Program-made: the position numbers and the translations under genes | In this document: piece after piece, positions 1 to 23,671 of the stretch | Layout: every line of letters begins with the position of its first letter | How positions within the stretch are numbered: the first letter of the stretch is position 1 | The notes under the pieces: generated by a model | Told to the model about the DNA's origin: nothing | What the model saw: only the letters and a program-made list of their open reading frames with translations | Databases searched by the model: none | Source: Amphiscolops sp. MND2022 | Lineage: Eukaryota | Assembly (NCBI GenBank): GCA_964187785.1 | Contig: OZ076409.1 | Location: 72,356,001-72,420,000 of the forward strand | Direction of reading: 5' to 3' | Length of the DNA: 64,000 bases

Positions 1-1200
1 TCGTGGCTGTGGCATTGCACTGAACACAATAGATGTAGAGTTTTTACATTTTTTGAAAATTCGACATTTTTGATTTTTTTTCACTACTATCAGTACACTA
101 TATGTCAAAAACACCTCTGAAAAAAATTATTATTTGCTTAAAATTGGAAACCTTGGTATCCATGGTTTCTGTCGGAACCTACTCGCTGCCAAACACCCAA
201 CAGTTTGCATCCAATGTGAATTTAAAATTTTTTTCGAGGTCATAAGGGTTTCACAAGGTTTTCATAACCTAGTATTAAACTACAAACTGGTCATTTTCAA
301 CATAATATCTTTGTCGAGGCATGTCGGATATAGTCCTATTGCTCACGAACGGTCCTACTGGCAACGTAATAACCATTTATAGAAATGTAAAGTTATAAAA
401 AAATTTTTTCACCCGGTCTTCAGTCATTTTTCAGTCATTCGGAACTTAACTTAGAAAAATTTCGACCAAAATATCCATTTTTTGTCAGGTCGAAAAATCA
501 AATTAGGAATTTTAAGCAAAATTATTAACTCTGACGTAACCCATGGGGCCCATGATACTCAAAACAACGATTGACACTGGTATCAATGGCTCCAATAACA
601 TATGAGTCGCGATAAGACGTTATTTTGAACATTACGTCTCAATTGAGGTAAAGATCTCGCAAGCCAGCGATCACTGTGAAATGTGATTTCATCAAAAATT
701 TACTCCTTTTTGTCAATCACTATGTGCACAGAATGCGTAGGGTGCGTTTCAGCACTATAATGAGGTTTTTGAAGGCATCGAGTTGCTCAAAGGATGGTAT
801 GAGACATTTTTGTCCCATATACTACTGTATTTTCCAAAATTTTTAGCCCAATATCTGGAAATACAAACTTAACAAAATACTTTCAACTACTTTATTCAGA
901 GGTTACAATATAGATGAACACTGTGGTTGATCAGAAACTTTCATCTCTTTCGTTTTCCGAAATATTTCCCTTCGCATGTGTTACATTCGTAGCAGAAAAA
1001 AAAATCGAAACTGAAAAATACGCAATTTTGCTAATATAGAATCGCACTGATTGTGCCTAAAAACTCTTTAAACACTTCTAACGCAACCTTAGGCACCGAA
1101 AATGATCGAAAATGCTATTCACAATGGTGACATGTGCTCTTTCTACGATCCTGGCTGGACAAGGTTTGCATATTTTTCAAGTACCTGTCAGCTAAATCTT

Positions 1201-1248
1201 GTGATAGCCTTTTCAGTTGGCCTTGTGTCAACTTGGGAAGGCTATCAC
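1201..1248 (+). other. Long bulged hairpin, GATAGCC class (representative; in A and C units)
   Basis: GTGATAGCCTT...AAGGCTATCAC outer stem plus an AGTTG/CAACT inner stem. Confidence 0.8.
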
Positions 1249-1573
1249 ATCAAAAAACCATCAACAAAAATAATTTTTGTTTATTGGATCTTACAGTCGA
1301 TACTTTTTTTCGTGATTCTATACTACCGTTAGTATATTTCATCAGGTCACCTTACGATTGCATTCAGTCTTTGATAAAAACCTATGAACTCAAAGTCACA
1401 TTTATATATTTTTTGGCCAAAAAAACATCAAAAATATCTAAAATATATAAAATAGAGTCTTTAACATTTTTACGTTTCAAGTTTTTGCCGTTATTAAGCC
1501 AATCAACTTCCTACAGCCACGCTCTCTGTCATACTGTACAACGCCACATAGTGTTGCGACGTGCACAGTCTGT

Positions 1574-1593
1574 GGGCATGCCGAGGCATGCCC
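1574..1593. promoter_or_regulatory. Conserved 20-bp palindrome matching the p53-family response element consensus (representative; one per unit end)
   Basis: GGGCATGCCG|AGGCATGCCC matches RRRCWWGYYY x2 at 19 of 20 positions with zero spacer. It is present before all 25 junctions. Function is not demonstrated. Confidence 0.45.
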
Positions 1594-1615
1594 TTCGACG
1601 ACGTATGCCGAATAC

Positions 1616-1645
1616 CGCGGGCCTACGCCCGCGCTCCCCGGCTAG
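1616..1645 (+). other. Helitron-type 3' terminus: GC-rich hairpin plus CTAG (representative)
   Basis: A 7-bp stem lies 8 nt upstream of CTAG. Canonical Helitrons end in a subterminal hairpin followed by CTRR. Confidence 0.7.
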
Positions 1646-3634
1646 GTGGGCGGGGGTAATTCCCCAACAAAAATTACGGCCGGCGGGTTGGGTCCTGCCG
1701 GACGTTCAAATAGCGCGAAGCATCTAGTAGAAAACAAGGAGTCCTGAAACAGCGATTTTAAAATTGAACCGTTAGAATTTGGTTTTAGATTGCAAGCGGC
1801 CCTAAAATCCCCATACGAATGGAAGTTCCTGCTGGCGTTAAGCGATTGAAATAATATATAAAAAGTTATGGCCCATTTTTGGGTCACCGAGAAGGTCAAA
1901 ATGAAGAAAATTTTAACTAAGTTGCTGATAACTCAAAATGTGTTAATTTTTGGACTTTGACTGTGAAACAAGCTTGGAACCTTCATTTCGTGGCTGTGGC
2001 ATTGCACTGAACACAAAAGATGTAAAGTTTTCACATTTTTTGAAAATTCGACATTTTTGAATTTTTTTTCACTACTATCAGTACACTATATGTCAAAAAC
2101 ACCTCTGAAAAATTTTTTTATTTGCTTAAATTTAGAAACCTTGGTATCCATGGTTTCCGTCAGTACCTACTCGCTGCCAAACACTCAACAGTTTGCATCC
2201 AATGTGAAAATAAAATTTTTTTCGAGGTCTTAGGTGTTTCACAAGGATTTCTCAACTTAGTATCAATTTACAAATTGGTCATTTTGAACACATTATTTTC
2301 ATCGAAGCGTGTCATATACCGCCCTAATGCTCACGAACGGGCCTACTGGCAACGTTGGAACCATTTATAGTAATAAAAAGTTTTAAAAAAATTTTTTCAC
2401 CCCGTCTTCAGTCATTTTACACACTTTCGGAACTTAACTTAGAAAAATTTCAACCAAAAACCCATTTTTTGTCAAGTCGAAAATTCAAATTCAGCTTTTT
2501 AAGCAAAATAAATAAATCTGACATAACCACTGGGGCCCATGAAACTCAAAACCACGATTGAGACTGGTATCAATGGCTCCAATAACATATGAGTCGCGAT
2601 AAGACGCTATTTTGAGCAAAACATCTCAATTGAGGTAAAGATCTCGCAAGCCAGCGATCACTGTGAAATGTGATTTCATCAAAAATTTACTCTTTTTTGT
2701 CAATCACTATGTGCACAGAATGCGTAGGGTGCGTTTCAGCACTATAATGAGGTTTTTGAAGGCATCGAGTTGCTCAAGGGGTGGTATGAGACATTTTTGT
2801 CCCATATACTACTGTAGTTTCCAAAATTTTTACCCCAACATCTGAAAATACAAACTTGACAAAATACTTTCAACTACTTTATTCAAAGGTTACAATATAG
2901 ATGAACACTGTGGTTGATAAGAAACTTTCATCTCTTTCGTTTTCGGAAATATTTCCGTTCGCATGTGTTACATTCATAGCAGAAAAAAAAATCGAAACTG
3001 AAAAATACGCTATTTTGCTGATATAGAATCGCAATGATTGTGCCTAAAAACTCTTTAAACACTTCTAACGCAACCTTACGCACCCAAAATGATCGAAAAT
3101 GCTATTCACAATGGTGACATGTGCTCTTTCTACAATCCTGGCTGGACAAGGTTTGCATATTTTTCAAGTACCTGTCAGCTAAATCTTGTGATAGCCTTTT
3201 CAGTTGGCCTTGTGTCAACTTGGGAAGGCTATCACATCAAAAAATCATCAACAAAAATAATTTTTGTTTATTGGATCTTACAGTCGATACTTTTTTTCGT
3301 GATTCTATACTACCGTTAGTATATTTCATCAGGTCACCTTACGATTGCATTCAGTCTTTGATAAAAACCTATGAACTCAAAGTCACATTTATATATTTTT
3401 TTGCCAGAAAATAACATCAAAAATATCTAAAATATATAAAATAGAGTCTTTAACATTTTTACGTTTCAAGTTTTTGCCGTTATTAGGCCAATCAACGTCC
3501 TAGAGCCACATCCTGCCACATACTGTACAACGCCACATAGTGTTGCGACGTGCACAGTCTGTGGGCATGCCGAGGCATGCCCTTCGACGACGTATGCCGA
3601 ATACCGCGGGCCTACGCCCGCGCTCCCCGGCTAG
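1646..3634 (+). mobile_element. Unit 2, family A (1989 bp)
   Basis: Starts GTGGGCGGGGGTAATTCCCC and ends hairpin+CTAG. Appears identical to unit 7 (offset 14781; the ORF-track translations are identical). Confidence 0.8.
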
Positions 3635-4901
3635 GTGGCCGCGTCTTTTAGATGGACTTTTAGCCCTGAGGCGCGGGTAGGGTCCTGCGCCGAAACAGAG
3701 AAATTATACTACTGCACATAGCCCCGGTCCAGACACGATCTCGAAAACTGACCGTTAGAAATTCCTGAAAATTTGCATGTGGCCCCCAATTGGCGAGCAA
3801 TGAAAAAGTGTAGGAGGTCGTTTTTCCCAAATTCCACTGTGAGAGGAGATATATGAAAAAAACGGACCCCAAAATGACGAAATTTTCACTTTTTGACCAA
3901 AAATGTGACATTATCTCCTCAGACAAGGCTCGGAGCAAAATTTGACAGAACCCAAACCTGCAGCAGACTGTTAGAGCAGTGCACACAGTAAGTTTCAAGG
4001 AAATCGGATAATCACATGTGGAGAAATTGACGTTCTTCCGGCGAAATTTTTCGCAAATGCAGTCTATCTCTGCCGTTTTTTGCCCAAAATTTTTCCGAGA
4101 CCCTCTCCTAAAGGCCTCCCCTGGCCCAATTTCTTCCCAAAAAAACCATTTGGCCCTAAATACGAGGTTTCAGCGTTCCAGCATTCCCCAGTGAAAAGTT
4201 ATGGGACTTAGAAATTTTTCAAATATTTTCAAATTTTTTCTAAAAAAGTTCAGGCCGCCCAAAGTGAAGAAACTTCCACACAACTAGTATTGCAAGTGAA
4301 TGCATGTGGAAAGCCCTGCACTTGACCAGAAAAATGCCGTTTAGAACGTCTTTTTATCTTTACTTGATGTTGACTTATGATCTTTTGAGTAACGTATAAC
4401 ACGTGATCACAGTAGTGAAAATCCTAATCAATAATTTTCAAACAATAACGCATGAAAAGAATCTGGAAAGGTTCCGATGGGTCAGTCGGGATGTCTGAAG
4501 CATGTGTACATTCCCGTAGTGTATAGCGGATGTTTTGGGACTTATTAGAAATTGTGATATATTTTATAAAAGTCTTTGTTTCTCATAGAATCTCATGCAG
4601 TTGAGTACATTCCATCTCCCTCTCAGGGGAGATGTGAATGTACGTTTGCCAAATGCCTTGTAAAGTTCACATGTTTGATGGACTTAACTAAAAAAACAAG
4701 TGTGAGTTGCGTTTGCCGAATCGCTACAGCAAAAAATACTAAAACTTTAGTCAGATTGAATGGTTTTTGTCTTTAGTGTTTCTTCTTGTATAGCCGACTT
4801 CCACATCCAATTATCAACGCCCACCGTCCGTAGGCATGCCGAGGCATGCCTTTCGACGACGTATGCCAAATACCCAATGCCACACAGTCTTTCCCCGCTA
4901 G
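3635..4901 (+). mobile_element. Unit 3, short family S1 (1267 bp)
   Basis: Starts GTGGCCGCG. Stem GGCGC/GCGCC flanks GGGTAGGGTCCT. GTACATTC hairpin at 4605-4643, A/T variant palindrome at 4832-4851, ends GCTAG. Confidence 0.75.
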
Positions 4902-6893
4902 GTGCGGGGGGGAAACCCCTTCCTTTATCTTGGAGGATTCGGGTAGGGTCCTGAATCCGAGTTCAGTGCCGCCAGCTCTCAGTAGAAATCTGGGCATTTT
5001 TTTGCGATCTCGTGATCTAACCATAGGATTTTAAAGTTGGAGCGGCCCCCACCAGATTTTCCAAAGTTATTCGCCCCCCACCGGGTTCCAGCGTGATTGA
5101 AATATTTTGTCGGGGTACACGGGCGACCGTTAGGGGTCATTTTAGGGGTAAAATTTATATAATGTCGCATAACTTTTTTCCTGTTGGATTAAAACTTTGG
5201 GACCCTGCTAAAAGTTTCTTGACCGTGTTGCGGGGGCTCCGGAGGTCCAAACCAAATTTTTCTATCTTGAAGCTATCTCCAAGTACCCCCCCGCCCAAAC
5301 CGTTATTTTTCCGGAAACGCAGGTTTTTGACCCGGAAGGAGTCGTCTGAGCGCGGGGTCGTTAGGTGATGTATTGGGGACGGCCTTGAGACGAAGCGGGG
5401 GACATGTAATTTGCCGACCCCAGTTTACCCCCCGGACGGAAAATGACCGTTATATGAGCGGGATAAATGCCCCCCTCCACGTTTTACCGCTATTTCCGAT
5501 GGGAAGGAGTGGGAGTAACGCTTCGGGTGCCATATATCAAAAGTAGGTTTAGACAAGGACCTATCGGAAACATGTGGTTTGGGACCCCCTGACCCAACCC
5601 GTTAGCGGGAAATGGGGCTTCAGCCTCCTTTTTTTACAGTTAAAACCGGAAAATGGGCATTGAGGGGTAAATATCTCGTGAACGCGTGGAGCAATCGTGT
5701 CCATCACTACTACAAGGTTTCATACCCATGATATGGTGCCTTCAGGGGGGCAAACAGATTTCCGCTATCTATCACCGTTACGGACTTGGCCCCCCAGCCT
5801 AACCGCTATGTGACCGGAAATGTCACTTTTTGAGCCCAAAGGGTCAGTCCGAGCGCGGCATGGTTAGCTAACTTATTGTAGTACTCAATGAGACGAGTTG
5901 GGGGATATAGTTTCAGTCACCCCCCGTTACCCCTTGTGACCGGAAATGACCGTTATGTGGGTAAAAATGCGATTTTTGTACTTTTTGAAGGGCATTTAGG
6001 TGCGGAAGGAATGGTAAAAGGTGCTTGGACACTATATGATGTAATGGAGGTCGTGAGGAGAGCATTCGGAAGTAACCGTTACGTTGACCCCAAAGTCCCC
6101 CTGGTACCGTTAACAACCGGAAATGGCCAAATTTTGTGTTTATAGGGTACAAATGTTTGGTATTTTATGGATAAAAGTACCTGGAAGGTGTTTTAAAGGC
6201 CTCCAGAAGTGAACATAGTCATGAAACTTTGTGGGGGGTAACGGTATATAGCACCGGAAGTCCAAACCGTTAGTTACAGAATAGGTTTTTTGGTTTCAAA
6301 ATGTCTTTAGGCGTAGTTTTGTGGGTTGAATCGTCATAATATCAACTAATACGGACTTTTTTCGGAAATAAAATTTTTTCACATTAGTTTCAGGGACCTC
6401 CAATGTTTCAGTCAACATAACCGTTACATTTTGATAGCCTTTCAAGTTGGCCTGGTGTCAACTTGGAAGGGCTATCCTTCTAAAATCGTTAATCAAGAGT
6501 GTTTTTGGGTAGGTATATGTTGCATTAGTACCAATTAGAGCTTCATCAACAGTTTGCCAACGGCAAAAACGATGTCGTGATAATTCCGTTATAAGAATAT
6601 TAATTAACAAATTGTTTCCAAAGTTGATTTTTTCCATTCGAAATGTGTCCCAATGCCACCAAATTGAATAAAATAATAAATGGTATTGACTAAAACTAAA
6701 TAACATTGAAAAAGAAGCTCAACATTTTTAATAGGTCTCATAATGGAAGCTGAAACCTCACGTTTTAACTTAATTAACGTCAACGCCACATACTTTACAT
6801 CAACGTCCGCCGTCTGTGGGCATGCCGAGGCATGCCCTTCGACGACGTATACCAATTACATATATATCTACACCCACCCGCGGTAGCAGCTAG
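4902..6893 (+). mobile_element. Unit 4, GC-richer family C (1992 bp)
   Basis: Starts GTGCGGGGGGGAAACCCC. Body is homologous to units 17, 23 and 25 but not recognisably to family A. GATAGCC hairpin at 6433-6476, palindrome at 6818-6837. Confidence 0.75.
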
Positions 6894-9130
6894 GTGGGCG
6901 GGGGTAATTCCCCAACAAAAAAATCGGCCGGCGGGTCGGGTCCTGCCGGCCGTCCAAAATCAAAATCCTCCTAGTAGAAAACGGCATGTCAAACGAGCTA
7001 TTTTTTTATTTAACCATACGAATTTCACCATTTTTTGCATGCGGCCCTGAAATGGCCATACGAGACGAAGTTCCTGCTGACGTTTTGCGATGTAAATGTT
7101 TTATAAAAAGTTATGGCCTATTTGTCATTCACCTAGAAGGGTAAAATGAGGAAAATTTTAGCAAAGTCGCTGATAACTCAAAATGTGTTAATTTTTGGAC
7201 TTTGACTGTGAAACAAGCTTGGAACCTTCATTTCGTGGCTGGGGCATTGGACTGAACACAAAAGATGTAAAGTTTTTACGTTTTTTGAAAATTCGACATT
7301 TTTGAAATTTTTTTCACTACTATCAGTACCCCATATGTCAAAAACACCTCAGAAAAAAATTTTTATTTGCTTTAAATTGGAAACCTTGGTATCCATGGTT
7401 TCTGTCGGGACCTACTCGCAGCCAAACACTTAACAGTTTGCATCCAATGTGAAAAGAAAATTTTTTTCGGGGTCATAAGCGTTTCACAAGGATTTCTCAA
7501 CTTAGTATCTATTTACAAATTGGTCATTTTGAACACATTATTTTCATCGAAGCGTGTCAGATACCACCCTAATGCTCACGAATGGGCCTACTGGCAACGT
7601 TGGAACCATTTTTAGTAATAGAAAGTATTAAAAAAATATTTTCACCCGGTCTTCAGTCATTTTTCAGACATTCGGTACTTAACTTAGAAAAATTTCGCAT
7701 CAAAAACCCATATTTGGTAGGGTCGAAATTTGAAATTCAGTTTTTTATGCAAAATTATTAACTCTGACGTAACCAGTGGAGCCCATGATACTCAAAATCA
7801 CGATTGGGACTGGTATCAGTGGCTCCAATAACATATGAGCCGCGATAAGACGTTATTCAGAGCAAACGCTCTAAATCGAAGTAAACATCTCTGAAGCCTG
7901 GGATCACAGTGAAATGTGATATCACCAAAAGTTTACTCTTTTTTGTCAATCACTATGTACACAGAGTGCGTAGGGTGAGTTTCAGGACTATAATGAGGTT
8001 TTTGAAGTAATCGCGCTGCTCAAGGGGTGGTATGAGACTATTTTTTCCCATATACTACTACATTTCCATAAATTTGCAGTCCATTGTCTTGGAAAGATAA
8101 CTTCACAAAAACAATTTTTGTACTCTATTCAGTTATTAGAATAAAGTTGAACACTGTGGTTGATCAGAAATGCTCAATTCTTTTGGTTTTTAAAAAAATT
8201 CCTTCGCATTCGTTACATTTGTGGAAGGAAGGTTATCAGTAGCTCCAAAAAAAAACGAAATTTAGCACGAACAGACATGCAACGATGCAAAGCAAAAACG
8301 TTTTTACAACTTCCGACGTCATTATTTTACCCAAGAAGATTGAAAATATCATTCGCAATGCTGTCATTCGCTATATATACGATCGCGGTCAATTTACAAA
8401 CATTTAGATTTCATTGTTCTGCTTGAAAACCAATTTTTGTCAGGTCGAAATTTTAAATTTTGCCTGGGGAGCAATACCCTTCACGCTGAAGTAAACAGTG
8501 GGGCCCAAGTTACTCAAAAACAAGAAAGAGACTGCTACAATATGTCCTAATAACATATGGACCACGATAGTACACTTTTCACACAAAAAACTCTCATCCG
8601 AAGTAAATATGTTGAAAGCTTTTAATCACCGTGAGAAGTGATTTCATCAAAAAGTAACTCTTTTTTGTCAATCACTATTTACACAGAATTTGTAAAGTTA
8701 GTTTGAGTCATGAAATGAGGCTTTACCGTAATATGGGTTGCTCAAGGTGTTATATAAGACAAAAACTTCCTCTTTTCTACTAGCTTCTTCAAATATTTCA
8801 ACCCTTTGTCACAATAAGTTAATATTCAAAATATCTTTGAAATGTATCTTTATGTTGGGGTGAAGTCTAAGAACAATAACTATGATCGAAGAATGCTAGT
8901 ACTGGTGTTTGAACCATGTCCGGATGAACAAATCACAAAATCATCAAAAAATTGTTCCCTTTTTTGGTTATTTTGGCAGTACTAAAAATGTTAGCTGATA
9001 AATAATTTTTTCGATGGCACCATTGGATTCCTCTCAAAAAGTTGGTTATATGACCTGTGTAATAACCCCGTATCTTTTCAATTTAAATATATTTAAAAAG
9101 CCAACTATTTTGACCAAAATCCTAAAAATC

Positions 9131-10405
9131 ATACCATTTCCTAAAAATTTTCAAATGCACCCCATTTGACGTATAAGATAAGCACAGAAAACTATCATTT
9201 ACCGATCAACTCTACTCCCATTGTAGATTATTAGAATTTTGTTTAGAATGAATTTTGATGGATATTAAAAAAATTTTGAACCCTCCAAAAATGGGCCAAA
9301 ATTACACGAAAAAATTGACCTTAAAATACCAAAATGTCAAAAAATCATCAAAACCACGGCTTCTTGGGGTTCTATCAACTCCGCGTGGTCCACAGAGTAT
9401 GCTAAAACAGGATTTACCCGTTTTTGAGCAATATGTGAAAAAGCCGACATTTTTGGGAAAGAAAAACATACCATTTCCTAAAAAAATTCAAATGCACGTA
9501 ATTTGCCGTATTAGAATAGCACAGAAAACTATCACATACCAATCAACTCTACTTTCATTGCAGATGAACAGAATTTTGTTTAGAATAAATTTTACCGGAT
9601 AATAAAAAAATTTGAATCCTTCAAAAATGGGCCAAAATTACACGAAAAAATGGACCTTAAAAATTTAAAATGTCAAAAAATCGTCAAAACAACAGCTTCT
9701 TGGGGTTCTATCAACTCCACGAGGTCCACAGAGTATGCTAAAACAGGTTTTACCCGTTTTTGAGCAATATGTGAAAAAGCCGACATTTTTGGGAGAGAAA
9801 AACATACCATTTCCTAAAAAAATTCAAATGCACGCCATTTGCCGTATGAAAATAGCACAGAAAACTATCACATACCAATCAACTCTACTTTCATTGCAGA
9901 TGAACAGAATTTTGTTTAGAATAAATTTTACCGGATAATAAAAAAATTAGATTCCTTCTAAAATGGGCCAAAATTACACGAAAAAAAGGACCTTAAAATT
10001 TTAAAATGTCAAAAAATCATCAAAACCACGGCTTCTTGGGGTTCTATCAACTCCACGTGGTCCACAGAGTATGCTTTATAGAGAGAATAAAACCCGGTTT
10101 TACCCATCTTTGAGCAAAATGTGAAAATACCGACATTTTTGGAAAAGAAAAAAATACCATTTTCTAATAAATTTCAAATGCACGCCATTTGCTGTATGAG
10201 AATAACACAGAAAGCTGTCACATACCGATCAACTCTACTTCCATTGTAGATTATCAGAAGTTTGTTTTGAATAAATTTTGATGGTTAATAAAAATAATTG
10301 AATCCATCAAAAATGGGCCAAAATTACACGAAAAAATTGACCTTAAAATATCAAAATGTCAAAAAATCATCAAAACCACAGTTTCTTGGCGTTCTATCAA
10401 CTCCA
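9131..10405 (+). repeat. Internal ~336-bp tandem repeat, ~3.8 copies
   Basis: ATACCATTT anchor at 9131, 9468, 9804 and 10154. The third copy carries a ~14-bp insertion near 10076 that unit 15 lacks. End coordinate is approximate. Confidence 0.9.
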
Positions 10406-10688
10406 TATGATACCAAACCAGGTACTGCCAATCGTTTGAGTTATAATAAAAAAACGTCTTTTTTGGCAAGAATTCCATACCATAAATAATGTTCCATATA
10501 AGAAGCGAATCATTTCAGATATATACCCTGTTCATTTTTTTAATATTACCGATTATTAATTTAATAGATGTTTTGAATGTGAGCTTCCTAAAAGGTTCAG
10601 GTGTGATGTTACGTAAAGAGAACCTTAGTTTCATCGAAATCTCAATTGAATATGTCCAATCCTAACCATCAGATAACAAGAAACACTT

Positions 10689-10731
10689 AAGTACATTCCA
10701 TCTCCCCATCGGGGGAGATGAGAATGTACTT
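10689..10731 (+). other. Long bulged hairpin, GTACATTC class (representative; in L, S1 and S2 units)
   Basis: AAGTACATTC-CATCTCCCC-[ATCG]-GGGGAGATG-(A)-GAATGTACTT. Confidence 0.8.
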
Positions 10732-11663
10732 TCGAGAAGCCAAATACGTCCAACATTCAAACTTTTGTAACTTTGTATGTAACTCCTGAAACGAAGAAGG
10801 AATAAAATTGTTTCTGGTACATACATGAGTCTTTACTTCAGCTTCTATTTCTGCTGAACAAAACCATTCGACTCTTTTGCCGGAGTTAAGATCGATTGTA
10901 TTACCCAGTGAACAAAGGCATGACTGAAAACGTTTACTACTTTGTTCATAATTTTCCGGCCTTCCGAAATGATGAAACGTCCACATAACTAAGATAGCAA
11001 GTGAATGACTGCGAAATGCACCTTATTAGATGAGGTAAATAACGTGTAAAACTCTCCTTTATCCTAACATGAGGTTGAGTAATGATCATTTGAGAATAGT
11101 TTGATATGTGAATACAATAGTATAAAACAAGTACATTTTATATGAATAACGCCGTGGAAAGCGTTCAGAAAGGACAGTAGGCTTGTTTGGAACATGTATG
11201 TGTGGTGTCCCTTGGTGGCGTTCGCTTAGTGTATATGTCGAGGGGTATTCGAGTTGTTATGATAGAATTTACACACAAGTCTTTTGTTTTTTGGTTTTTT
11301 TAAAATGTCGTTAAGTACCTGCATTCTATCCCCTTCTCAGAGATGACGTGAAGTTACGTTTGCTAAATAAATGTCATCGAAAGATCACACTCCCGACGAA
11401 ATTAACTATCTTAACACGTGTTTAGAATTTTAAATAAACAACCGTATAAGATTATTATATTTCATTGAGTTTGATGAAGTCTTTTGTTCTTCTCACTACT
11501 ATTTCAACCAATACACATATCCGTTACCATATCACATGTCTCCATTAGTACAACGCCACATAGCGTTCCGACGCCCACAGTCTGTGGGCATGCCGAGGCA
11601 TGCCCTTCGACGACGTATGGCAAATGGAGCCATGCCCGCCGTCTTTACGGCGGTAGCGGCTAG

Positions 11664-14600
11664 GTGGGCGGGGGTAATTCCCCAACTAAAAAATCGGCCG
11701 GCGGGTAGGGTCCTGCCGGCCGTCCAAAATCAAAAATATACTAGTAGAAAACGGCCGGTCAAACGAGCTATTTTTTTATTTAACCGTTAGAATTTGGGTT
11801 TAGATTGCATGCGGCCATGAAATGGCCATACGAATCGAAGTTCCTGCTGACGTTTTGCGATTGAAACACTTTATAAAAAGTTATGGCCAATTTGTCAGTC
11901 ACCTAGAAGGGCAAAATGAGGAAAATTTTAACAAAGTCGCTAATAACTCAAAATGTGTTATTTTTTGGACTTTGACTGTGAAACAAGCTTGGAACCTTCA
12001 TTTCGTGGCTGTGGCATTGCACTGAACGCAAAAGATGTAAAGTTTTTACATTTTTTGAAAATTTGACATTTTTGAAATTTTTTTCACTACTATCAGTACC
12101 ATATATGTCAAAAACACCTCAGAAAAAAAATTTTATTTGCTTTAACTTGGAAACCTTGGTATCCATGGTTTCTGTCGGAACCTACTCGCAACCAAACAAC
12201 CAACAGTTTGCATCCAATGTGAAAATAAAAAATTTTTCTGGGTCATAAGCGTTTCACAAGGATTTCTCAACTTAGTATTAATTTACAAAATGGTCATCTT
12301 GAACACAATATTTTCATCGAGGCTTGTCGGCTATAGCCTTAATGTTCTAGAACGGTCCCACTGGCAACGTAGGAACCATTTATAGTAATAGAAAGTTTAA
12401 AAAATATATTTTCACCCTGTCTTCAGTCATTTTTCAGTCATTCGGAACTTAACTTAGAAAAATTTCGACCAAAATACCCATTTTTTGACAGATCGAAAAT
12501 TCAAATTCAACTTTTTAAGCAAAATTAGTAACTCTGACGTAACCAGTGGGACTCATGATACTCAAAAACACGATTGGGACTGGTACCAATGGCTCCAATA
12601 TCATATGAGCCGCGATAAGACGTTATTTTGAGCAATACGTCTCAATTGAGGGAAACATCTCGCAAGCCTGGGATCACAGTTAAAAGTGATTTCGTCAAAA
12701 ATTTACTCTTTTTCGTCAATCACTATGTACACAGAGTGCGTAGGGTGAGTTTCAGCACTATAATGCGGTTTTTGAAGGAATCGGTCTGCTCAAGGGGTGG
12801 TATGAGACATTTTTTTTGCATGTAGTACTATATTTCTCAAAACTTTTAGCCCAATATCTCGAAAAGCTCACTTCGCAAATTACTTTCAGTTACTCTATTC
12901 GAAGCTTAGAATATATATGAACAGTGTGGTTGATCAGAAACTCTTGACTATTTTGTTTTTGGAAAAAAACTGCCTTGCATGTGTTACATTAGTGGCAGGA
13001 AAAATACCAGTAGCTCCAAAAATCACAATTTTGGACGGACAGACCTGCAATGATGCAAAGCAAAAACGTTTCAACAACTTCTGGCGCCACTTTTTTAACC
13101 CAAGAGGTTCGAAATTACTATTAACAATGCTGACATTCGCTATAAATAAGATCGAGGTCAATTTACTAACACTTAGGTTATACATTTATATCTGAGAAAC
13201 CATTCTTTGTCAGGTCGCAATTTTAAATTTAGTTTGGGAAGCAATACTTTTCACTCTGAAGCAAACCGTTGGGCCCAAATTACTCAAAAACTACAAAAAG
13301 ACTGTCACCATATGCCCTAATAGCATATGAGATTCGACCGTATGTTTTTAACACAAAAACTCTCATCCGAAGTAAACATGTTGAAAGCCTTGAATCACCG
13401 TGAGAAATGATTTCATCAAAAAATATTCCTTTTTCGTCAATCTTTATCTACACAGAACACGTTGTGTCATTTTCAGCCGTGAAATGAGCTTCTACCGTAA
13501 TATGGGTTGCTCAAGGTGTTGTATAAGACAAAAACTTCCTCTTTTCTACTATCTTCTTCAAATATTTCAACCCTTTGTCACAAGAAGTTAATATTCAAAA
13601 TCTCTTTGAAATGTTTCTTTAGGTTGGGGTGAAGTGTTAGAACAATAATTATGATCGAAGAATGATAGTATTGGTGTTTGGACCATGTCCGGATGAACAA
13701 ATTGCAAAATCATGAAAAATTTCTTACCATTTTTGGTCATATTGTCAGTACTAAAAATGTTAGCTGAAAAAGAATTTTTTTGATGGCACCATTGGATTCC
13801 TCTCAAAAAGTTGGTTATATGACCTGTGTAATAACCCCGTATCTTTTCAATTTAAATATATTTAAAAAGCCAACTATTTTGACCAAAATACTAAAAATCA
13901 TACCATTTCCTAAAAATTTTCAAATGCACCCCATTTGACGTATAAGAATAGCACAGAAAACTATCACATACCGATCGACTCTACTTCCATTGTAGATTCC
14001 CAGAATTTTGTTTAGAACAATTTTTGACGGATGCAAAAAAATTTAAACCCTCCAAAAAAGGGCCAAAATTACACGAAAAAATTGACCTTAAAATTTTAAA
14101 ATGTCGAAAAATCATCAAAACCACAGCTTCTTGGGGTTCTATCAACTCCACGTGGTCCACAGAGTATGTTAAAACAAGTTTTACCCGTATTTGAGCAATA
14201 TGTGAAAAAGCCGACTTTTTTGGGAATGAAAAACATACCATTTCCTAAAAAATTTCAAACGCACCCCATTTGACGTATAAGAATAGCACAGAAAACTATC
14301 ACATACCGATCGACTCTACTTCCATTGTAGGTTACCAGAATCTTGTTTAGAACAATTGTTGACGGATGCAAAAAAAAATTTAAACCCTCCAAAAATGGGC
14401 CAAAATTACACGAAAAAATTGACCTTAAATTTTTAAAATGTCAAAAAATCATCAAAACCACAGCTTCTTGGGGTTCTATCAACTCCACGTGGTCCACAGA
14501 GTATGCTAAAACAGGTTTTACATGTTTCTGAGCTATATGTGAAAAAACCGACATTTTGGGGAAGAAAAACATACCATTTCTTAAAAAATTTCAAATGCAC

Positions 14601-16426
14601 GCCATTTGCCGTATGAGAATAGCACAGAAAACTATCACATACCGATCAACTCTACTTCTATTGTAGATTATCAGATTTTTGTTTAGAACAAATTTTTATG
14701 GATATAAAAAATTTTTAAACCCTCCAAAAATGAGCCAAAATAACACGAAAAAATGGACCCTAAATTTTTAAAATGTCAAAAAATTATCCAAACCACAGCT
14801 TCTTGGGGTTCTATCAGCTCCACGTGGTCCACAGAGTATGCTAAAACAGGTTTTGCCCGTTTTTGAGCAGTATATGAAAAAGCCGACATTTTTGGGGAAG
14901 AAAAACATACCATTTCCTAAATAATTTCAAATGCAGGCAATTTGCCGTATGAGAGTAGCACAGAAAACTATCACACACCGATCAACTCTACTTCTTTTGT
15001 AGATTATCAGAATTATGTTTAGAGTAAAGTTTTATGGATATGAAAAATTTTTATACCCTCCAAAAATGGGCCAAAATGACACGAAAAAATTGACCTCAAA
15101 TTTTTAAAATGTCAAAAAATTATCCAAACCACAGCGTCTTGGCGTTCTATCAACTCCAAATGACCTTCAGAGTATACCAAACCAGGTATTGCCAATCTTT
15201 TGAGCAATATTTAAAAACACCGACTATTTGGCAAGAACACCATAATATGTTCCATATAAGAAGTGAATCATTCCACATATATACCCGGTCTAATATTTCC
15301 AAATTAGCGATAACATTTATACATGATGGTTTTTGAAAGTGAGCTTTATAAGAGGTTGAGATGTAATAATACGTAAATGGACCCTAAGTTTCATTGAAAT
15401 CTCAATGGAATACGTCCAATCAACTTCAATCCTAACTATTATATAACAAAAAACACTTGAGTACATTCCATCTCCCCATCGGGGGAGATGAGAATGTACT
15501 TTTCAAAAGCCAAAAACTTCGAATTTTAAATCTTTTGTAACATTGTATGTAACTGTTGAAACGATGAACGAATGAAAATGCTTCTAGTACCTTCATCAAT
15601 TTTTGCTTCAGCTCCTATTTCTGCAGAACAAAACCAAAAGACACACTTACAGCAGTTAAGTTCGATTGTATAACTCAGTGAGTAAAGGTATGACTGAGGA
15701 AGTTCACAAGTTGTTTCAAAAGTTTCCGGCCTTCCAAAATCATGAAACGTCCACACAACCAAGATAGCAAGTGAAAGAATGCTGAATGCACCTTATTAGA
15801 TGAGATAAATAATGTGTGGAACTTGCCATTATCTCAAGATGACGTTGATTTATGATCTTTTAAGGATAGTTCGATATGTGACCACAATAGTGGAAAACTT
15901 ATTACTATTTGAAGAACACCGTGGAAAGCGTTCAGAAAGGACAGTATATTTGTTTCGAGCATGCATGCGTGTGTTCCTTTGGTGACGTTAGCTTAGTGTA
16001 CATGACGGAGGTATTCGAGAGATTATGATAGAGTTTACTCACAAGTCTTTGTTTTTTTAAACTTTCTATGCCGTTGAGTACATTCGTAAGGTACATCCAT
16101 CCCCTTCTCTGGGAATGTACGTTTGCCAAATGACTGTCATCCAAAATTCGTAATCCGGACGAGTTTAACTACATAAACATGTGATGAGCGTTTTCAATTC
16201 ACAACCGAATAACATTTTTTTTCTCGAAAATGATGATGGTTTTGATTTTGATGTCTTCTACTTTTATCATCATGCAAACGACCTTACCATGTCTCTCTTC
16301 TGTCGTCATTTGTACAACGCCACATAGCGTTCCGACGCCCACCGTCTGTGGGCATGCCGAGGCATGCCCTTCGACGACGTATGCCAAATGAGCCATACCC
16401 GCACTCTGGAGTGCGGTAGCGGCTAG
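11664..16426 (+). mobile_element. Unit 6, family L (4763 bp)
   Basis: Same layout as unit 5 but a different subfamily. Terminal hairpin CCGCACTC-TG-GAGTGCGG. Near-identical to unit 18 over most of its length. Confidence 0.78.
13900..15240 (+). repeat. Internal ~336-bp tandem repeat, ~4 copies
   Basis: Anchor at 13900, 14235, 14571 and 14907. End coordinate is approximate. Confidence 0.9.
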
Positions 16427-18415
16427 GTGGGCGGGGGTAATTCCCCAACAAAAATTACGGCCGGCGGGTTGGGTCCTGCCGGACGTTCAAATAGCGCGAA
16501 GCATCTAGTAGAAAACAAGGAGTCCTGAAACAGCGATTTTAAAATTGAACCGTTAGAATTTGGTTTTAGATTGCAAGCGGCCCTAAAATCCCCATACGAA
16601 TGGAAGTTCCTGCTGGCGTTAAGCGATTGAAATAATATATAAAAAGTTATGGCCCATTTTTGGGTCACCGAGAAGGTCAAAATGAAGAAAATTTTAACTA
16701 AGTTGCTGATAACTCAAAATGTGTTAATTTTTGGACTTTGACTGTGAAACAAGCTTGGAACCTTCATTTCGTGGCTGTGGCATTGCACTGAACACAAAAG
16801 ATGTAAAGTTTTCACATTTTTTGAAAATTCGACATTTTTGAATTTTTTTTCACTACTATCAGTACACTATATGTCAAAAACACCTCTGAAAAATTTTTTT
16901 ATTTGCTTAAATTTAGAAACCTTGGTATCCATGGTTTCCGTCAGTACCTACTCGCTGCCAAACACTCAACAGTTTGCATCCAATGTGAAAATAAAATTTT
17001 TTTCGAGGTCTTAGGTGTTTCACAAGGATTTCTCAACTTAGTATCAATTTACAAATTGGTCATTTTGAACACATTATTTTCATCGAAGCGTGTCATATAC
17101 CGCCCTAATGCTCACGAACGGGCCTACTGGCAACGTTGGAACCATTTATAGTAATAAAAAGTTTTAAAAAAATTTTTTCACCCCGTCTTCAGTCATTTTA
17201 CACACTTTCGGAACTTAACTTAGAAAAATTTCAACCAAAAACCCATTTTTTGTCAAGTCGAAAATTCAAATTCAGCTTTTTAAGCAAAATAAATAAATCT
17301 GACATAACCACTGGGGCCCATGAAACTCAAAACCACGATTGAGACTGGTATCAATGGCTCCAATAACATATGAGTCGCGATAAGACGCTATTTTGAGCAA
17401 AACATCTCAATTGAGGTAAAGATCTCGCAAGCCAGCGATCACTGTGAAATGTGATTTCATCAAAAATTTACTCTTTTTTGTCAATCACTATGTGCACAGA
17501 ATGCGTAGGGTGCGTTTCAGCACTATAATGAGGTTTTTGAAGGCATCGAGTTGCTCAAGGGGTGGTATGAGACATTTTTGTCCCATATACTACTGTAGTT
17601 TCCAAAATTTTTACCCCAACATCTGAAAATACAAACTTGACAAAATACTTTCAACTACTTTATTCAAAGGTTACAATATAGATGAACACTGTGGTTGATA
17701 AGAAACTTTCATCTCTTTCGTTTTCGGAAATATTTCCGTTCGCATGTGTTACATTCATAGCAGAAAAAAAAATCGAAACTGAAAAATACGCTATTTTGCT
17801 GATATAGAATCGCAATGATTGTGCCTAAAAACTCTTTAAACACTTCTAACGCAACCTTACGCACCCAAAATGATCGAAAATGCTATTCACAATGGTGACA
17901 TGTGCTCTTTCTACAATCCTGGCTGGACAAGGTTTGCATATTTTTCAAGTACCTGTCAGCTAAATCTTGTGATAGCCTTTTCAGTTGGCCTTGTGTCAAC
18001 TTGGGAAGGCTATCACATCAAAAAATCATCAACAAAAATAATTTTTGTTTATTGGATCTTACAGTCGATACTTTTTTTCGTGATTCTATACTACCGTTAG
18101 TATATTTCATCAGGTCACCTTACGATTGCATTCAGTCTTTGATAAAAACCTATGAACTCAAAGTCACATTTATATATTTTTTTGCCAGAAAATAACATCA
18201 AAAATATCTAAAATATATAAAATAGAGTCTTTAACATTTTTACGTTTCAAGTTTTTGCCGTTATTAGGCCAATCAACGTCCTAGAGCCACATCCTGCCAC
18301 ATACTGTACAACGCCACATAGTGTTGCGACGTGCACAGTCTGTGGGCATGCCGAGGCATGCCCTTCGACGACGTATGCCGAATACCGCGGGCCTACGCCC
18401 GCGCTCCCCGGCTAG
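16427..18415 (+). mobile_element. Unit 7, family A (1989 bp)
   Basis: Apparent exact copy of unit 2, with different neighbours on both sides. Confidence 0.8.
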
Positions 18416-20402
18416 GTGGGCGGGGGTAATTCCCCAACAAAAATTACGGCCGGCGGGTTGGGTCCTGCCGGACGTCAAATAGTGTGAAACATCCAGTAGG
18501 AAACGGCGACATAAATCAGCGATTTTAAAATTTAACCGTTAGAATTCGGACTTGGAGTGCATGCGGCCCCAAAATGCCCATACGAATCGAAGTTCCTGCT
18601 GACGTTAAGCGATAAAAACATTTTATAAAAAGTTATGGCCCATTTTACGTTCACCTATAAGGGTAAAATGAGGAAAATTTTTACAAAGTCGCTGATAACT
18701 CAAAATACATTAATTTTTGGACTTTGACTGTGAAACAAGCTTAGAACCTTCATTTCGTGGCTGTAGCATTGCACTGAACACAAAAGATGTAAAGTTTTTA
18801 CAATTTTTGAAAATTCGACATTTTTGATTTTTTTTTCACTACTATCAGTACACTATATGTCAAAAACACCTCTGAAAAAAATTATTATTTGCTTAAAATT
18901 GGAAACCTTGGTATCCATGGTTTCTGTCGGAACCTACTCGCTGCCAAACACCCAACAGTTTGCATCCAATGTGAAATTAAAATTTTTTTCGAGGTCTTAG
19001 GTGTTTCACAAGGATTTCTCAACTTAGTTTCAATTTACAAATTGGTCATATTGAACACAATATTTTCATCGAAGCTTGTCAGATACCGCCCTAATGCTCA
19101 CTAATGGGCCTACTCGCAACGTTGGAACCGTTTATAGTAATAGAAAGTTTAAAAAAAATATTTTCACCCGGTCTTCAGTCATTTTTCAGTCATTCGGAAC
19201 TTAACTTAGAAAAATTTCGACCAAAATACCAATTTTTTGTCAGGTCGAAAAATCAAATTCAGATTTTTAAGCAAAATTATTTACTCTGACGTAACTAGTG
19301 GGCCCCATGATACTCAAAAACACGATTGGGACCGGTACCAAGGGCTCCAATTTCATATGAGCCGCGATAAGACGTTATTTTGAGCAACACGTCTCAATAG
19401 AGGTAAACATCTCGCAAGCCTGGGGTCACAGTGAAAAGTAATTTCATCAAGAATTTACTCATTTTTGTCAATCACTATGTGCACAGAGTGCGTAGGGTGC
19501 GTTTCAGCACTTTAATGAGGTTTTTGAAGGCATCGGTCTGCTCAAGGGGTGGTATGAGACATTTTTTTCCTGTATACTACTGTATTTTCCAAAACTTTTA
19601 GCCAATTATCTGGAAAAACTAACTTGACAAAATACTTTCAACTACTTTATTCAAAGGTTACAATATAGATGAACACTGTGGTTGATCAGAAACTTTCATC
19701 TCTTTCGTTTTCCGAAATTTTTCCCTTCGCATGTGTAACATTCGTAGCAGAAAAAAAAATCGAAACTGAAAAATACGCAATTTTGCTAATATAGAATCGC
19801 AATGATTGTGCCTAAAAACTCTTTAAACACTTCTAACGCAACCTTACGCACCCAAATTGATCGAATATGTTATTCACAATGGTGACATGTTCTCTTTCTA
19901 CGATCCTGGCTGGACAAGGTTTGCATATTTTTCAAGTACCTGTCAGCTAAATCTTGTGATAGCCTTTTCAGTTGGCCTTGTGTCAACTTGGGAAGGCTAT
20001 CACATCAAAAAACCATCAATAAAAATAATTTTTGTTTATTGGATCTTACAGTCGAAACTTTTTTTCGTGATTCTATACTACCGTTAGTATATTTCATCAG
20101 GTCACCTTACGATTGCATTCAGTCTTTGATAAAAACCTATGAACTCAAAGTCACATTTATATATTTTTTTGCCAGAAAATAACATCAAAAATATCTAAAA
20201 TATATCAAATAGAGTCTTTAACATTTTTACGTTTCAAGTTTTTGCCGTTATTAGGCCAATCAACGTCCTAGAGCCACATCCTGCCACATACTGTACAACG
20301 CCACATAGTGTTGCGACGTGCACAGTCTGTGGGCATGCCGAGGCATGCCCTTCGACGACGTAAGCCGAATACCGCGGGCCTACGCCCGCGCTCCCCGGCT
20401 AG
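18416..20402 (+). mobile_element. Unit 8, family A (1987 bp)
   Basis: Family A body with the standard termini. Its 5' variant is shared with unit 10. Confidence 0.78.
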
Positions 20403-21681
20403 GTGGTCGTTAGCATGGGATTTTCTTTATGAGCGTAGTCCACTTTTTTTAGGCCGGGGTAGGGTCCCGGGCCGTTACCAATTTCTTACGGAGGAAAAAT
20501 GTGAAAATCTGCGAGTTTAAAAAATTGGCCCGTACGATTTGGCTGAAAATTGGCATACAGCATCGTCTTGGTAAACAAATGACTTTGTCCTAGTGACATT
20601 TTGCCCAGAAAATTCAAAAAGTTGGTCAAATTGAAAATTTTTTGACCGTCTAAGGCTAAAATTTGACTTTTTCGCTTTTTTTGGTCAATTTCCTCAGAAC
20701 TGGTTGATTTTGGTGAAGTAAGTCATAAGAGGTTATAAGGTCTGCAAATAGCCATCAATTGGCTTGCATAATCAGATTTTGTCAAAAGTGTTTAGTTTTT
20801 TCAAAATTTCACACTTTTTTTTCATTTCAGTGTTTTTTGATACAATTTATTGAATTTTTACTAAGTTCCACTAAATATTTTTAAAATGTTTTTAAAAAAC
20901 CTTTTTTTGCACGTTTTTGATGTTTTTTGCTCTCCCATATAGGTTTTCGCATACGTGGAACCTGAATCTGACAACGAAATAATTTTATTCCGCAGTTCAA
21001 CTTACGCCATTTTTAATAGTGAAAAATCACTCATTTTCAATCTAACGAGTGAAAATATCAGAATTTAAAAACCTAAAGTTGAGTTTAAGGCGACTTACAG
21101 GTAGAAACAAATGCTCAGAAACAAACTGATTTCTTGTATTAGCTAAAGAAAGCCTTTAAAATTCTTTTTACTTTCTTTAAATCAAAATTCGACACTTTTC
21201 ATGAAATTTGTCAGTGGAAAAAATTTATCATTTTTTTAAATTTAAAACTTGCTTTGTTGGTCATTTCCGTTAGTCATTAGTAGCTGTGTAATGCTCCAAA
21301 GCCTTTCAAGTTCTTTTGACCCTATTTGAAAATTTTTGATACTGCATAATCAATCCGAGAGAACGAAACAGTTGTGTACATTCCATCTCCCTCTTGGGGG
21401 AGATGAGAATGTACTTCCTAAAGTCCAGGTACTACAGATCATATTTGGTTTTATGCGACGCCCTCTATGCTAGTGCATATAAATACAAGTTGTTTGGCTG
21501 GATTTTGCTTCTGACTTGACGTATACTGTACGTTTGGTACTGACAATACCCATCATTTACATAACAAACGTCAACGCCACATACCCTCACCAACGTCCAT
21601 AGTCCGTAGGCATGCCGAGGCATGCCTTTCGACGACGCGCGCCAAACACAAGCGCGCCCGCACTTTTGCGGTAGCGGCTAG
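20403..21681 (+). mobile_element. Unit 9, short family S2 (1279 bp)
   Basis: Starts GTGGTCG with a unique, very AT-rich body. Has the GGCCGGGG-TAGGGT-CCCGGGCC stem-loop, a GTACATTC hairpin at 21376-21414, the A/T variant palindrome at 21608-21627 and terminal hairpin CCGCA-CTTT-TGCGG. Confidence 0.75.
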
Positions 21682-23671
21682 GTGGGCGGGGGTAATTCCC
21701 CAACAAAAATTACGGCCGGCGGGTTGGGTCCTGCCGGACGTCAAATAGTGTGAAACATCCAGTAGGAAACGGCGACATAAATCAGCGATTTTAAAATTTA
21801 ACCGTTAGAATTCGGACTTGGAGTGCATGCGGCCCCAAAATGCCCATACGAATCGAAGTTCCTGCTGACGTTAAGCGATAAAAACACTTTATAAAAAGTT
21901 ATGGCCCATTTTACGTTCACTTAGAGAGGTAAAATGAGGAAAATTTTAACAAAGTCGCTGATAACTCAAAATGTGTTAATTTTTGGCTTTTGACTGTGAA
22001 ACAAGCTTAGAACCTTCATTTCGTGGCTGTGGCATTGCACTGAACACAAAAGCTGTAAAGTTTTCACATTTTTTGAAAATTCGACATTTTTGAAATTTTT
22101 TTCACTACTATCAGTACCCCATATGTCAAAAACACCTCAGAAAAAAAAATTTATTTGCTTTAAATTGGAAACCTTGGTATCCATGGTTTCTGTCGGAACC
22201 TACTCGCAGCCAAACACCCAACAGTTTGCATCCAATGTGAAATAAAAAATTTTTTCGAGGTCATAAGCGTTTCACAAGGTTTTCATGATTTAGTATTAAA
22301 TTACATAGTGGTCATTTTAAACATAAAATTTTGGTCCAGGCATGTCGGATATAGTCTGAATGCTCACGAACGGTCCTACTGGCAACGTAGGAACCATTTA
22401 TAGTAATAAAAAGTATTAAAAATTTTTTTTCACCCGGTCTTCAGTCATTTTTCAGACATTCGGAACTTAACTTAGAAAATTTTCGAACCAAATACCCATT
22501 TTTTGTCAGGTCGAAAATTGAAATTCAGCTATTAAAGCAAAATATTTTACTCTGACGTAACCAGTGGGGTCCATGATACTCAAAAATACGATTGGGACTG
22601 GTACCAATGGCTCCTATATCATATGAGCCGCGATAAGACGTTATTTTGAGCAATATGTCTCAATTGAGGTAAACATCTCGCAAGCCTGGGATCACAGTGA
22701 AATGTAATTTCATCAAAAAATTACTCATTTTTGTCAATCACTATGTGCATAGAGTGGGTAGGGTGAGTTCCAACACTATAATGAGGTTTTTGAAGGCATC
22801 GGGTTGCTCAAGGGGTGGTATGAGTCATTACTTTCCTATATACAACTGTATTTTCAAAAACTTTTAGCCCATTATCTGGAAAAACTAACTTGACAAAATA
22901 CTTTCAATTACTTCATTCAAAGGTTACAATATAAATGAACACTGTGGTTGATCAGAAACTTTCATCTCTTTCGTTTTCCGAAATAACTCCTTTCAAATGT
23001 GTTACATTTGTAGCAGGAAAAAAAACTGAAACTAAAAAATACGCGATTTTGCTGAGATAGAATCGCAATGGTTGCGCCTAAAATCTCTTTAAATACTTCT
23101 AACGCGACCTTACGGACCCAAAATGATTGAAAATGCCATTCACAATGCTGACATGTGCTCTTTCTACGATCCTGGCTGGACAAGTTTTGCATTTTTTTCA
23201 AGTACCTGTTAACTGAACATTGTGATAGCCTTTCAAGTTGGCCTTGTGTCAACTTGGGAAGGCTGTCACTTCAAAAAACTGTCAACAAAAATACCATTTG
23301 TTTATAGGATATTGCTGTCGATGCTTCACTTCGTGATTCGATCATGTCGTGAGTTCCTTCCATCAGGTCAGCTAACATTTGGATTCAGTGTTGGATAAGA
23401 ACCTATGATTTTCATGACAATTTTAGTTCTTTTTTGCTAACAAAAAGTACGAATAAATGATATAAAACATATTTGTGACCTCTAGGAAGTTTAACTTTAC
23501 CTTTATTTACCGTTACCATCGCCACCCACCCCCTACGACCTCGCAGTGTCCTCATTACAACGCCACATAGTGTAGCGACGCCCACAGTCTGTGGGCATGC
23601 CGAGGCATGCCCTTCGACGACGTATGGCAAATATAGCGTTAGCCCGCGGTCACTACCGCGGTAGCAGCTAG
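21682..23671 (+). mobile_element. Unit 10, family A subfamily (1990 bp)
   Basis: Body resembles units 24 and 26. Terminal hairpin CCGCGGT-CACT-ACCGCGG. Confidence 0.78.

Follow-up and report, generated by a model that had tools for sequence, protein, structure and literature searches.

In the parts of the published accounts drawn on here, Helitron1 elements carry a GC hairpin 10-12 nt before a 3' CTRR and are on record as tandem insertions (PMC5148889), Helraiser forms circles in which CTAG is precisely joined to the head and has a hairpin whose stem, but not loop, can be swapped (PMC4778049), internal tandem repeats are frequent in non-autonomous Helitrons (PMC4067079), and Helitrons with target and orientation specificity exist (PMC13085455). 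The units analyzed here share with Helitron1 and Helraiser a 3' GC hairpin before CTAG, the lack of TIR and target duplication, a non-coding interior that includes tandem repeats, and precise head-to-tail joints. They differ in that a TC start is found in none of 25 heads (which start GTG or TG), in carrying extra 5' and subterminal hairpins, and in having several families on one junction; unlike Helitron1, they do not lie between A and T. Unlike Helitron tandem arrays, adjacent units are never identical, which argues against a rolling-circle concatemer. Helitron2/Helentron elements (HINE, DINE-1, FoHeli) are similar in having hairpins at both ends and central repeats, and non-TC starts, e.g., TGCCT, are reported among them, whereas the units here have no T-rich/TT insertion site. 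The ATIR of Helitron2 (an asymmetric terminal inverted repeat of 8-15 bp) was at chance level, as was a subterminal inverted repeat of that length: between the first 15 nt and last 45 nt, the longest perfect inverted run was 3-6 bp, with p at least 0.09 in 24/24 units.

Other systems are alike in part. The telomeric Helitrons of Paramecium are specific in the sequence and orientation of their placement and have 3' stems that covary, satellite sequence as cargo and derivatives lacking ORFs, but are described as lying in telomeric repeats and ending in CCAA, whereas the units here abut directly (PMC13085455). [quoted passage not shown] The Box 1/Box 2 satellites of Meloidogyne also have monomers that diverge from one another and are exchanged where short motifs are conserved, but these are ~170-bp monomers in higher-order repeats, and a terminal hairpin-CTAG is absent from the description available to us (PMC3694981). 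With Cryptons, the units share a short terminal direct repeat (the 8-bp core, 25/25), a likeness that any head-to-tail array would give.

A head-to-tail array of units joined at an invariant 8-bp core

The window, i.e., the whole 64-kb stretch analyzed (1..64000, + strand), consists of 26 non-coding units, all on the same strand and arranged head to tail, and the array continues past both window ends. The units are delimited by GCTAGGTG, which in a scan of the window matched 25 times on the + strand and 0 times on the – strand. All 25 joints are identical over an 8-bp core, GCTAG|GTG (for example 1641..1648), with core starts at 1641, 3630, 4897, 6889, 11659, 16422, 18411 and onward to 62574. 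No joint contains extra bases between CTAG and GTG, and no flanking host site occurs within the window. CTAG is the terminus of 25/25 tails and every head begins with GTG, or with TG if the cut sits one base further right; the cut could be anywhere among the eight invariant bases. At minimum, the sequence common to junctions is 5+3 nt, and junctions joining unrelated families have 8-9 nt in common.

The units are 1.27-4.77 kb in size and fall into families A, A', L, S1 and S2, in the order A A S1 S2 L L A A S1 A A A A A L A' S2 L L A A A S2 A S2 A. Most are 5-17% apart in sequence. The interior of unit 4 (S2, 4902..6893, 1992 bp) has no detectable homology to A (z of 1.7 and –0.7 for A versus S2), with length, ends and internal hairpin position as in A, and unit 3 (S1, 3635..4901, 1267 bp) shows weak interior homology to unit 9, also S1 (z of 4.3). 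All five L units contain a 336-bp tandem repeat, present in ~4 copies in unit 5 (9125..10405) and located at 13894-15229, 33852-35118, 43396-44739 and 48158-49416 in the others; the possibility that it is a dimer of 168 bp was tested and rejected. The shuffled order of several families at a single eight-letter site suggests copy-and-paste elements inserting precisely at each other's ends.

No transposase was found in the 64-kb window, where the longest ORF is at most 198 aa, and 71 window frames tested against Pfam gave no mobile-element or recombinase family. Three weak matches were obtained, of which one exceeded the cut-off: Flu_PB2_6th at 40109-40534 (–), E of 7e-6. We regard this as a chance match: searches against the PDB gave E values of at least 0.4, PB2 was absent from the two hits in 1.8 billion proteins, and the DNA of the region is weakly alignable to S2 relatives.

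Hairpins at the ends and in the interior of the units

In 20 of 25 tails there is a GC stem without mismatches, 5-7 bp long and 10-12 nt before the end of CTAG, as in unit 2, where a 7-bp stem with a 4-nt loop stands 12 nt before the CTAG end (3605..3634, +). Such stems occur in 10/15 distinct tails, compared to 0.27 expected from shuffles, and comprise five different stem sequences. The five tails without it (units 3, 4, 17, 23 and 25) belong to units that are nevertheless shuffled. Upstream lies a subterminal hairpin, GTC-nnn-RGGCATGC-CGAG-GCATGCCY-TTC-GAC (at approximately 3557..3588, +, in unit 2), which has one compensatory pair (G-C in seven and A-T in five of 12 rows). It is invariant in 25/25 tails and in L001, a 1172-bp contig that was the single match in a motif scan of metagenomes; motif scans of viral contigs and prokaryote genomes, and blastn against phages, gave 0 matches. 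L001 is homologous to the 3' part and ends of unit 3 and shares the anatomy of the units, i.e., the subterminal, 5' and Q hairpins, with an end that is CGAG and not CTRR.

The 5' hairpin (1680..1701, +, in unit 2) has a variable covarying stem and a conserved loop, T[ATC]GGG[TG]. With L001 counted in, this conserved hairpin is found in 24/26 heads, 35-65 nt inside the head and without an ATIR. Across seven distinct stems, 32/35 outer pairs are kept, compared to 14.6 with shuffled arms (p=0.0004). Its G.T wobble pairs on the + strand only, which points to recognition as a single strand. Each unit also contains one long internal hairpin of type P or Q: P (3190..3233, +, in unit 2) occurs once in every unit of the A, A' and S2 families, with 440-578 nt between it and the 3' end, and Q (10691..10729, +, in unit 5) once per L and S1 unit.

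Linkage, duplication and mosaicism

Linkage was compared across the junctions and within the units, a test that can be used on any array. Across the 8-bp core r was 0.07, whereas six other adjacent segment pairs gave r=0.41-0.92. The 500-bp flanks up- and downstream of a junction show no correlation (r=–0.04, p=0.59), whereas the two ends of the same unit are correlated (r=0.63, p=0.0002). Tail-head combinations at junctions are as diverse as chance (22 kinds versus 20.9 at random), whereas a unit's own head-tail combinations are less so (17 versus 20.7, p=0.0025). The exchange point falls inside the junction core. A weak residual linkage across junctions is seen for the S2 tails, 4/4 of which are followed by one and the same head type (8/25 heads; p=0.0055, noticed post hoc).

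Unit 2 (1646..3634, +) and unit 7 (16427..18415, +), both A units of 1989 bp, are identical (0/1989 differences). The longest exact match between them is 2000 bp (1639-3638 versus 16420-18419), overrunning the units by only 7 nt upstream and 4 nt downstream, and their neighbors differ: unit 2 lies between A (unit 1) and S1 (unit 3), unit 7 between L (unit 6) and A (unit 8). This junction-bounded identity in different neighborhoods is as the original prediction described it, and the unit order likewise confirms that units 5 and 15 are followed by L and A', and units 6 and 18 by A and L, respectively. These two further pairs had also been called near-identical, which holds throughout for units 2/7, whereas it holds for units 5/15 and 6/18 only 3' of a point inside the unit. 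Unit 5 (6894..11663, +) matches unit 15 (31620-36383) from ~+590 to the 3' end, with a density of differences of 0.10 upstream and 0.016 downstream of that point (97.4% identity overall), and unit 6 (11664..16426, +) matches unit 18 (41168-45928) from ~+1075 to the 3' end, with densities of 0.078 and 0.008 (97.6% overall). One of three pairs is therefore junction-bounded at both ends, and duplication of a whole monomer is shown by this pair only.

The wider set comprised 32 tracts (at least 419 bp at ≥97% identity, 64 ends; the tracts are not mutually independent). No near-identical tract reaches >179 bp into both of the units that meet at a junction and, since flanks are also uncorrelated, multi-unit segments are not the unit of recent duplication. 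Among these non-independent tracts, 20/64 ends fall no more than 30 bp from a junction, compared to 2.4% expected, and many are anchored to a junction at one end only, the other falling inside a unit. The original prediction, that the monomer is what has recently moved, expected tracts neither to run routinely across junctions, which none does by >179 bp into both units, nor to end at random inside units, where 44/64 ends are found >30 bp from any junction. It holds in that multi-unit segments were not recently duplicated; monomer movement is not the sole process. A and L units are mosaics, and within A units no linkage is seen between the first 300 bp and either +400-700 (r=–0.06) or the last 300 bp (r=–0.05) of the same unit. 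Together with the internal tract ends and the head differences of units 5/15 and 6/18, this mosaicism means that internal recombination acts besides monomer movement.

Adjacent A pairs are 84-95% identical, with a mean of 90.7% (n=7) versus 88.8% for non-adjacent pairs (n=59), the identical pair sits five units apart, and family order is not clustered along the array (p=0.25). A rolling-circle concatemer or homogeneous satellite was rejected, since adjacent units are not the most alike.

Possible origins of the array

With moderate confidence, we read the units as non-autonomous Helitron-like (HUH) rolling-circle elements whose insertion site is the end-to-end junction that they form themselves. 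A transposase encoded elsewhere would act on the units in trans, nicking the + strand inside the GCTAGGTG core at a unit head; one strand would be peeled up to a stop at the 3' hairpin plus CTAG, and a monomer circle would close, its joint restoring the core. The circle would integrate at the sequence that the enzyme nicks, i.e., a resident head-tail junction. This mode of insertion would leave units that are full-length, on the same strand and not nested, with the families intermixed in near-random order; it would duplicate no target sequence, and would give rise to copies like units 2 and 7. Afterwards, exchange between related units, through homologous recombination or template switching and mostly within +300 to +1100, may have swapped heads and bodies to leave mosaic units. 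Homologous exchange would need more than the 5+3 nt that junctions share at minimum, yet it is at the junctions that linkage is lost. Counting for Helitron-like elements are the 3' GC stem with CTAG, the covarying 5' hairpin with its strand-specific wobble, the tandem repeats of L units and the like anatomy of L001; counting against them are the lack of a transposase in the window, the GTG/TG heads, the missing A|T site, the stemless tails (5/25), the CGAG of L001, the S2 tails with one head type, the single whole-unit pair and the mostly internal tract ends.

A HUH enzyme, if responsible, would be a site-specific eukaryotic rolling-circle integrase accepting 1.3-4.8 kb of unrelated interior between short structured ends, and a possible tool. 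The array offers a specific path by which a transposon could become a complex satellite, through reordering of single units at one defined 8-bp site and not through unequal crossing-over or concatemer growth. It is possible, if doubtful, that the units belong to an undescribed eukaryotic class of single-strand mobile elements, shared between species, whose enzyme has the head-tail junction of its own elements as sole target and builds an integron-like, reorderable, multi-family cassette polymer with a P or Q hairpin per unit as cargo or signal. Arrays of this kind could form a chromosomal domain that renews itself, e.g., subtelomeric or centromeric.

The frequent tracts with one junction end and one internal end, and the strong mosaicism of units, would also be expected of a complex satellite in which the conserved junction is a hotspot of breakage and exchange: nicks at the core would start conversion tracts or crossovers of variable length, overwriting half units and occasionally a whole unit, and no free monomer would transpose. 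Meloidogyne, where divergent monomers are reported to be shuffled at conserved boxes of 17-20 bp (PMC3694981), provides a precedent. We consider this unlikely, because it leaves unexplained both the covarying Helitron-type terminal stems and the joining, at eight common bases, of families that differ in length and lack interior homology, and because array crossovers should bring neighbors along, which no tract does.

Somewhat less credible again is an integron-like cassette array, in which a tyrosine (Crypton-like) or serine (IS607-like, GG core) recombinase excises circles and reinserts them at cores. The 8-bp direct repeat bounding every unit, the uniform orientation without nesting and the linkage break at the core are all consistent with this, as are the reported 4-6 bp terminal direct repeats of Cryptons (PMC3212892) and IS607 crossover at GG (PMC10711439), a dinucleotide that the core contains. 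However, the core lacks inverted arms of 11-13 bp (the best gave 5-10/13 pairs, with many registers tried and the register not constant), the arrangement of hairpin and CTAG and the strand-specific wobble are more in keeping with single-strand HUH chemistry, a unit is not copied by its excision alone, and a recombinase gene is absent from the window. The IS607/Fanzor2 idea is further weakened by the TIRs and TSDs reported in mollusc Fanzor2 elements. LTR/TRIM arrays were rejected, the terminal repeat common to units being just 8-11 bp.

That the junction block is a structured RNA (a self-cleaving motif, or else a small RNA gene whose spacers vary), and that the units were moved through RNA or are spacer variants shuffled in-gene, is very unlikely. 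It would suit the covarying stems, whose G.T pairs form on one strand, the single long miRNA-like hairpin of each unit, and the GT start and AG finish of the units, but the 64 kb contain no Rfam match at gathering score (one junction gave seven sub-threshold matches, bacterial or archaeal, best E 0.17), a comparison by eye with consensus structures showed no resemblance to hammerhead, HDV or pistol, the units lack 5' truncations and poly(A), and the unlinked halves of the block argue against a single fold across the junction.

Perfect identity of copies 15 kb apart can arise as a consensus effect, but it is hardly credible that collapse or polishing during assembly produced the unit 2/unit 7 identity, the mosaics and the order, because most units differ as much as they do, no assembler joins unrelated families on 8-9 nt, and L001 and a run-X3 contig spanning 11544-11998 show the same junction anatomy; assembly error could at most have erased the last few differences between units 2 and 7. 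The five sequencing runs listed share 0.05-0.15 of the window's words. Among the read-contig matches listed, at a depth of 3-6, one spans a junction and three stop at a core (1641, 4897 and 1639), which is only a hint.

Unit families and coding content

Self-comparison showed that the window is repetitive over its entire 64 kb, and cutting it at the 8-bp junction core, GCTAG|GTG, gave 26 units (u1–u26, 5' to 3'). The family labels A, A', L and S1 are those of the original prediction, while S2, and P and Q for two types of long internal hairpin, were coined here. There are 14 A units of about 1.99 kb, five L units of 4.75–4.77 kb with about four 336-bp repeats in each, four S2 units of 1.97–2.79 kb, two S1-type units of 1.27–1.28 kb (u3, 1267 bp; u9, 1279 bp) and a single A' unit (36384–38377). 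The 8-mer GCTAGGTG is present in 25 copies, as is a palindrome of 18 nt; the two are invariably paired and lie on the + strand only. No conserved end motif lay in a unit interior, and the units are therefore not nested. The DNA probably comes from a eukaryote.

A units (e.g., 1646–3634), the A' unit and three S2 units (4902–6893, 56628–58598 and 60586–62578) are near-equal in length (1971–1994 bp) and carry the P hairpin at a matching place although their interiors have no detectable homology; u3 and u9 are likewise alike in length and in the position of the Q hairpin (+971 and +974). This sharing across families may reflect deep homology or a length constraint. The L units (e.g., 6894–11663) look composite: their first ~1.3–1.5 kb is A-like, their 3' part bears a weak similarity to S1, and they carry, besides the 336-bp array, a duplicate of +810–1145 at 722-bp spacing and a further, degenerate Q-like stretch near +4410. 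The remaining S2 unit, u17 (38378–41167), is extended by an internal duplication of ~502 bp, and the others show an older 503-bp period. ACCGTTA, which we take to be possibly a Myb-like protein-binding motif, occurs 56 times on the + strand of the window and 3 times on the – strand, most densely in S2 units.

Within the 64-kb window there was no ORF longer than 198 aa and no Rfam match, and 71 frames from five representative regions and two further ORFs gave no mobile-element Pfam match. A 142-aa open frame (40109–40534, – strand) matched Pfam Flu_PB2_6th marginally over the cut-off (E 7e-6); neither PDB nor a wide protein search supported the match, which was rejected as chance. Part of u17 is 81% similar to a frame on record from another public contig.

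Linkage within units and across junctions

The original prediction took near-identical units in different neighbourhoods as a sign that the monomer is the unit of recent movement. All the neighbours it ascribed to the paired units were correct, and u2 and u7 are indeed identical across 1989 bp, the exact match ending 7 nt to the left and 4 nt to the right of the bounding junctions. The pairs u5/u15 and u6/u18 match up to the 3' junction and diverge over the first ~590 and ~1075 bp, respectively, and the evidence for copying of a whole unit is a single pair.

To measure linkage, similarity matrices of adjacent segments were compared across 25 junctions. Six adjacent segment pairs gave r 0.41–0.92 (p 0.0005), and the pair split by the core gave r 0.07 (p 0.23). 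The head (5' end) and tail (3' end) of the same unit, 1–4.7 kb apart, gave r 0.63; among 11 A units the head was unlinked to its own +400–700 segment (r –0.06) and to its own tail (r –0.05), so the within-unit value is mostly family-level signal. Tail-head combinations at junctions are as diverse as random, and own head-tail combinations are less varied than random. Some junctions have no more than 5+3 nt in common, so homology does not drive the joining at the core.

Among 32 tracts of at least 419 bp at ≥97% identity, which overlap and are hence non-independent, 20 of the 64 ends lay no more than 30 bp from a junction, where 2.4% would be expected. Identity did not end only there, with 44 ends elsewhere, two of them at the window edge, and the nearest relative changes along most A and L units. 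Crossing of junctions, which the prediction named beside random internal ends as a sign against it, was seen in four tracts, which enter the shared A tail by 120–179 bp; in none did identity run further on both sides. The monomer interpretation is supported in part, and the tract ends off junctions speak against a monomer-only model. Residual linkage over junctions with A or L heads was r 0.15 (p 0.053, n=18). An A head follows an A tail in 6/10 cases versus 3/15 (p 0.053), and one head type follows S2 tails in 4/4 (6889, 41163, 58594 and 62574; p 0.0055, post hoc). The terminal stem is missing from all four S2 units, which, with the constant next head, could reflect read-through and dimer co-movement.

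Anatomy of unit ends and hairpins

In the tail, a canonical Helitron right end, an invariant hairpin, which has a single compensatory pair, precedes a variable GC stem, which in 20/25 tails ends 10–12 nt short of the CTAG end; a terminal GC stem is present in 10 of 15 distinct tails (0.27 expected). In the head, GTG is followed by a G/C-run hairpin (most units) and by a stem around a conserved loop; the outer pairs of this stem covary (32/35 kept versus 14.6 when shuffled), and it has a G.T pair that is possible on the + strand only. Such strand specificity of the stems suggests recognition of a single strand. One strong long internal hairpin, P (e.g., 3190–3233) or Q (e.g., 10691–10729), is present in every one of the 25 units with their 3' part inside the window. 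A metagenome contig, L001, shares the tail, head and Q hairpins (the last at 567–605), with GCGAG|GTG as its joint.

P and Q have the look of pre-miRNA stems or of single-strand origins. In the heads (1685–1697 in u2, and likewise in the others), the loop region GGGTAGGGT resembles a telomeric repeat, and the unit ends are intron-like (GT at the start, AG at the end); either may be coincidence.

Candidate mechanism and known systems

An HUH transposase supplied in trans would free monomer circles closed at the core, these would integrate at sequence identical to it, and related units would afterwards mix by homologous exchange. A satellite with junction-anchored conversion is an unlikely alternative to such Helitron-like movement, and a recombinase cassette system, exchanging units at the core, is slightly less likely still. 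An RNA-based system is improbable, and an artefact slightly more so.

The system would work like a Helitron, but the array units lack the 5' TC and A|T site of Helitron1; they also lack the ATIR and T-rich site of Helitron2/Helentron. Tandem, self-inserted and target-specific Helitrons are on record in the portions covered of the comparison literature on Helitrons and other systems (PMC5148889, PMC3627910, PMC4778049, PMC11417382, PMC4067079, PMC10288648, PMC10711439, PMC3212892, PMC3694981, PMC13404089, PMC13085455, PMC11934779, 10.1101/445429, 10.1101/2025.11.13.688278). Neither these portions nor literature searches, with subscription journals mostly outside coverage, yielded an array in which several full-length families are shuffled at a single invariant joint. 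The families may already be catalogued in Repbase or Dfam, and terminal sequences in supplements of the cited papers could match these unit ends. Tandem Helitrons are reportedly also treated in plant-centromere and Drosophila papers, known through citations in other papers.

Very deep short contigs of the sequencing run X3 (depth up to ~5800) match u3 at 3762–3817 and 4277–4337, and from this depth some other organism may harbour a related repeat in high copy number.
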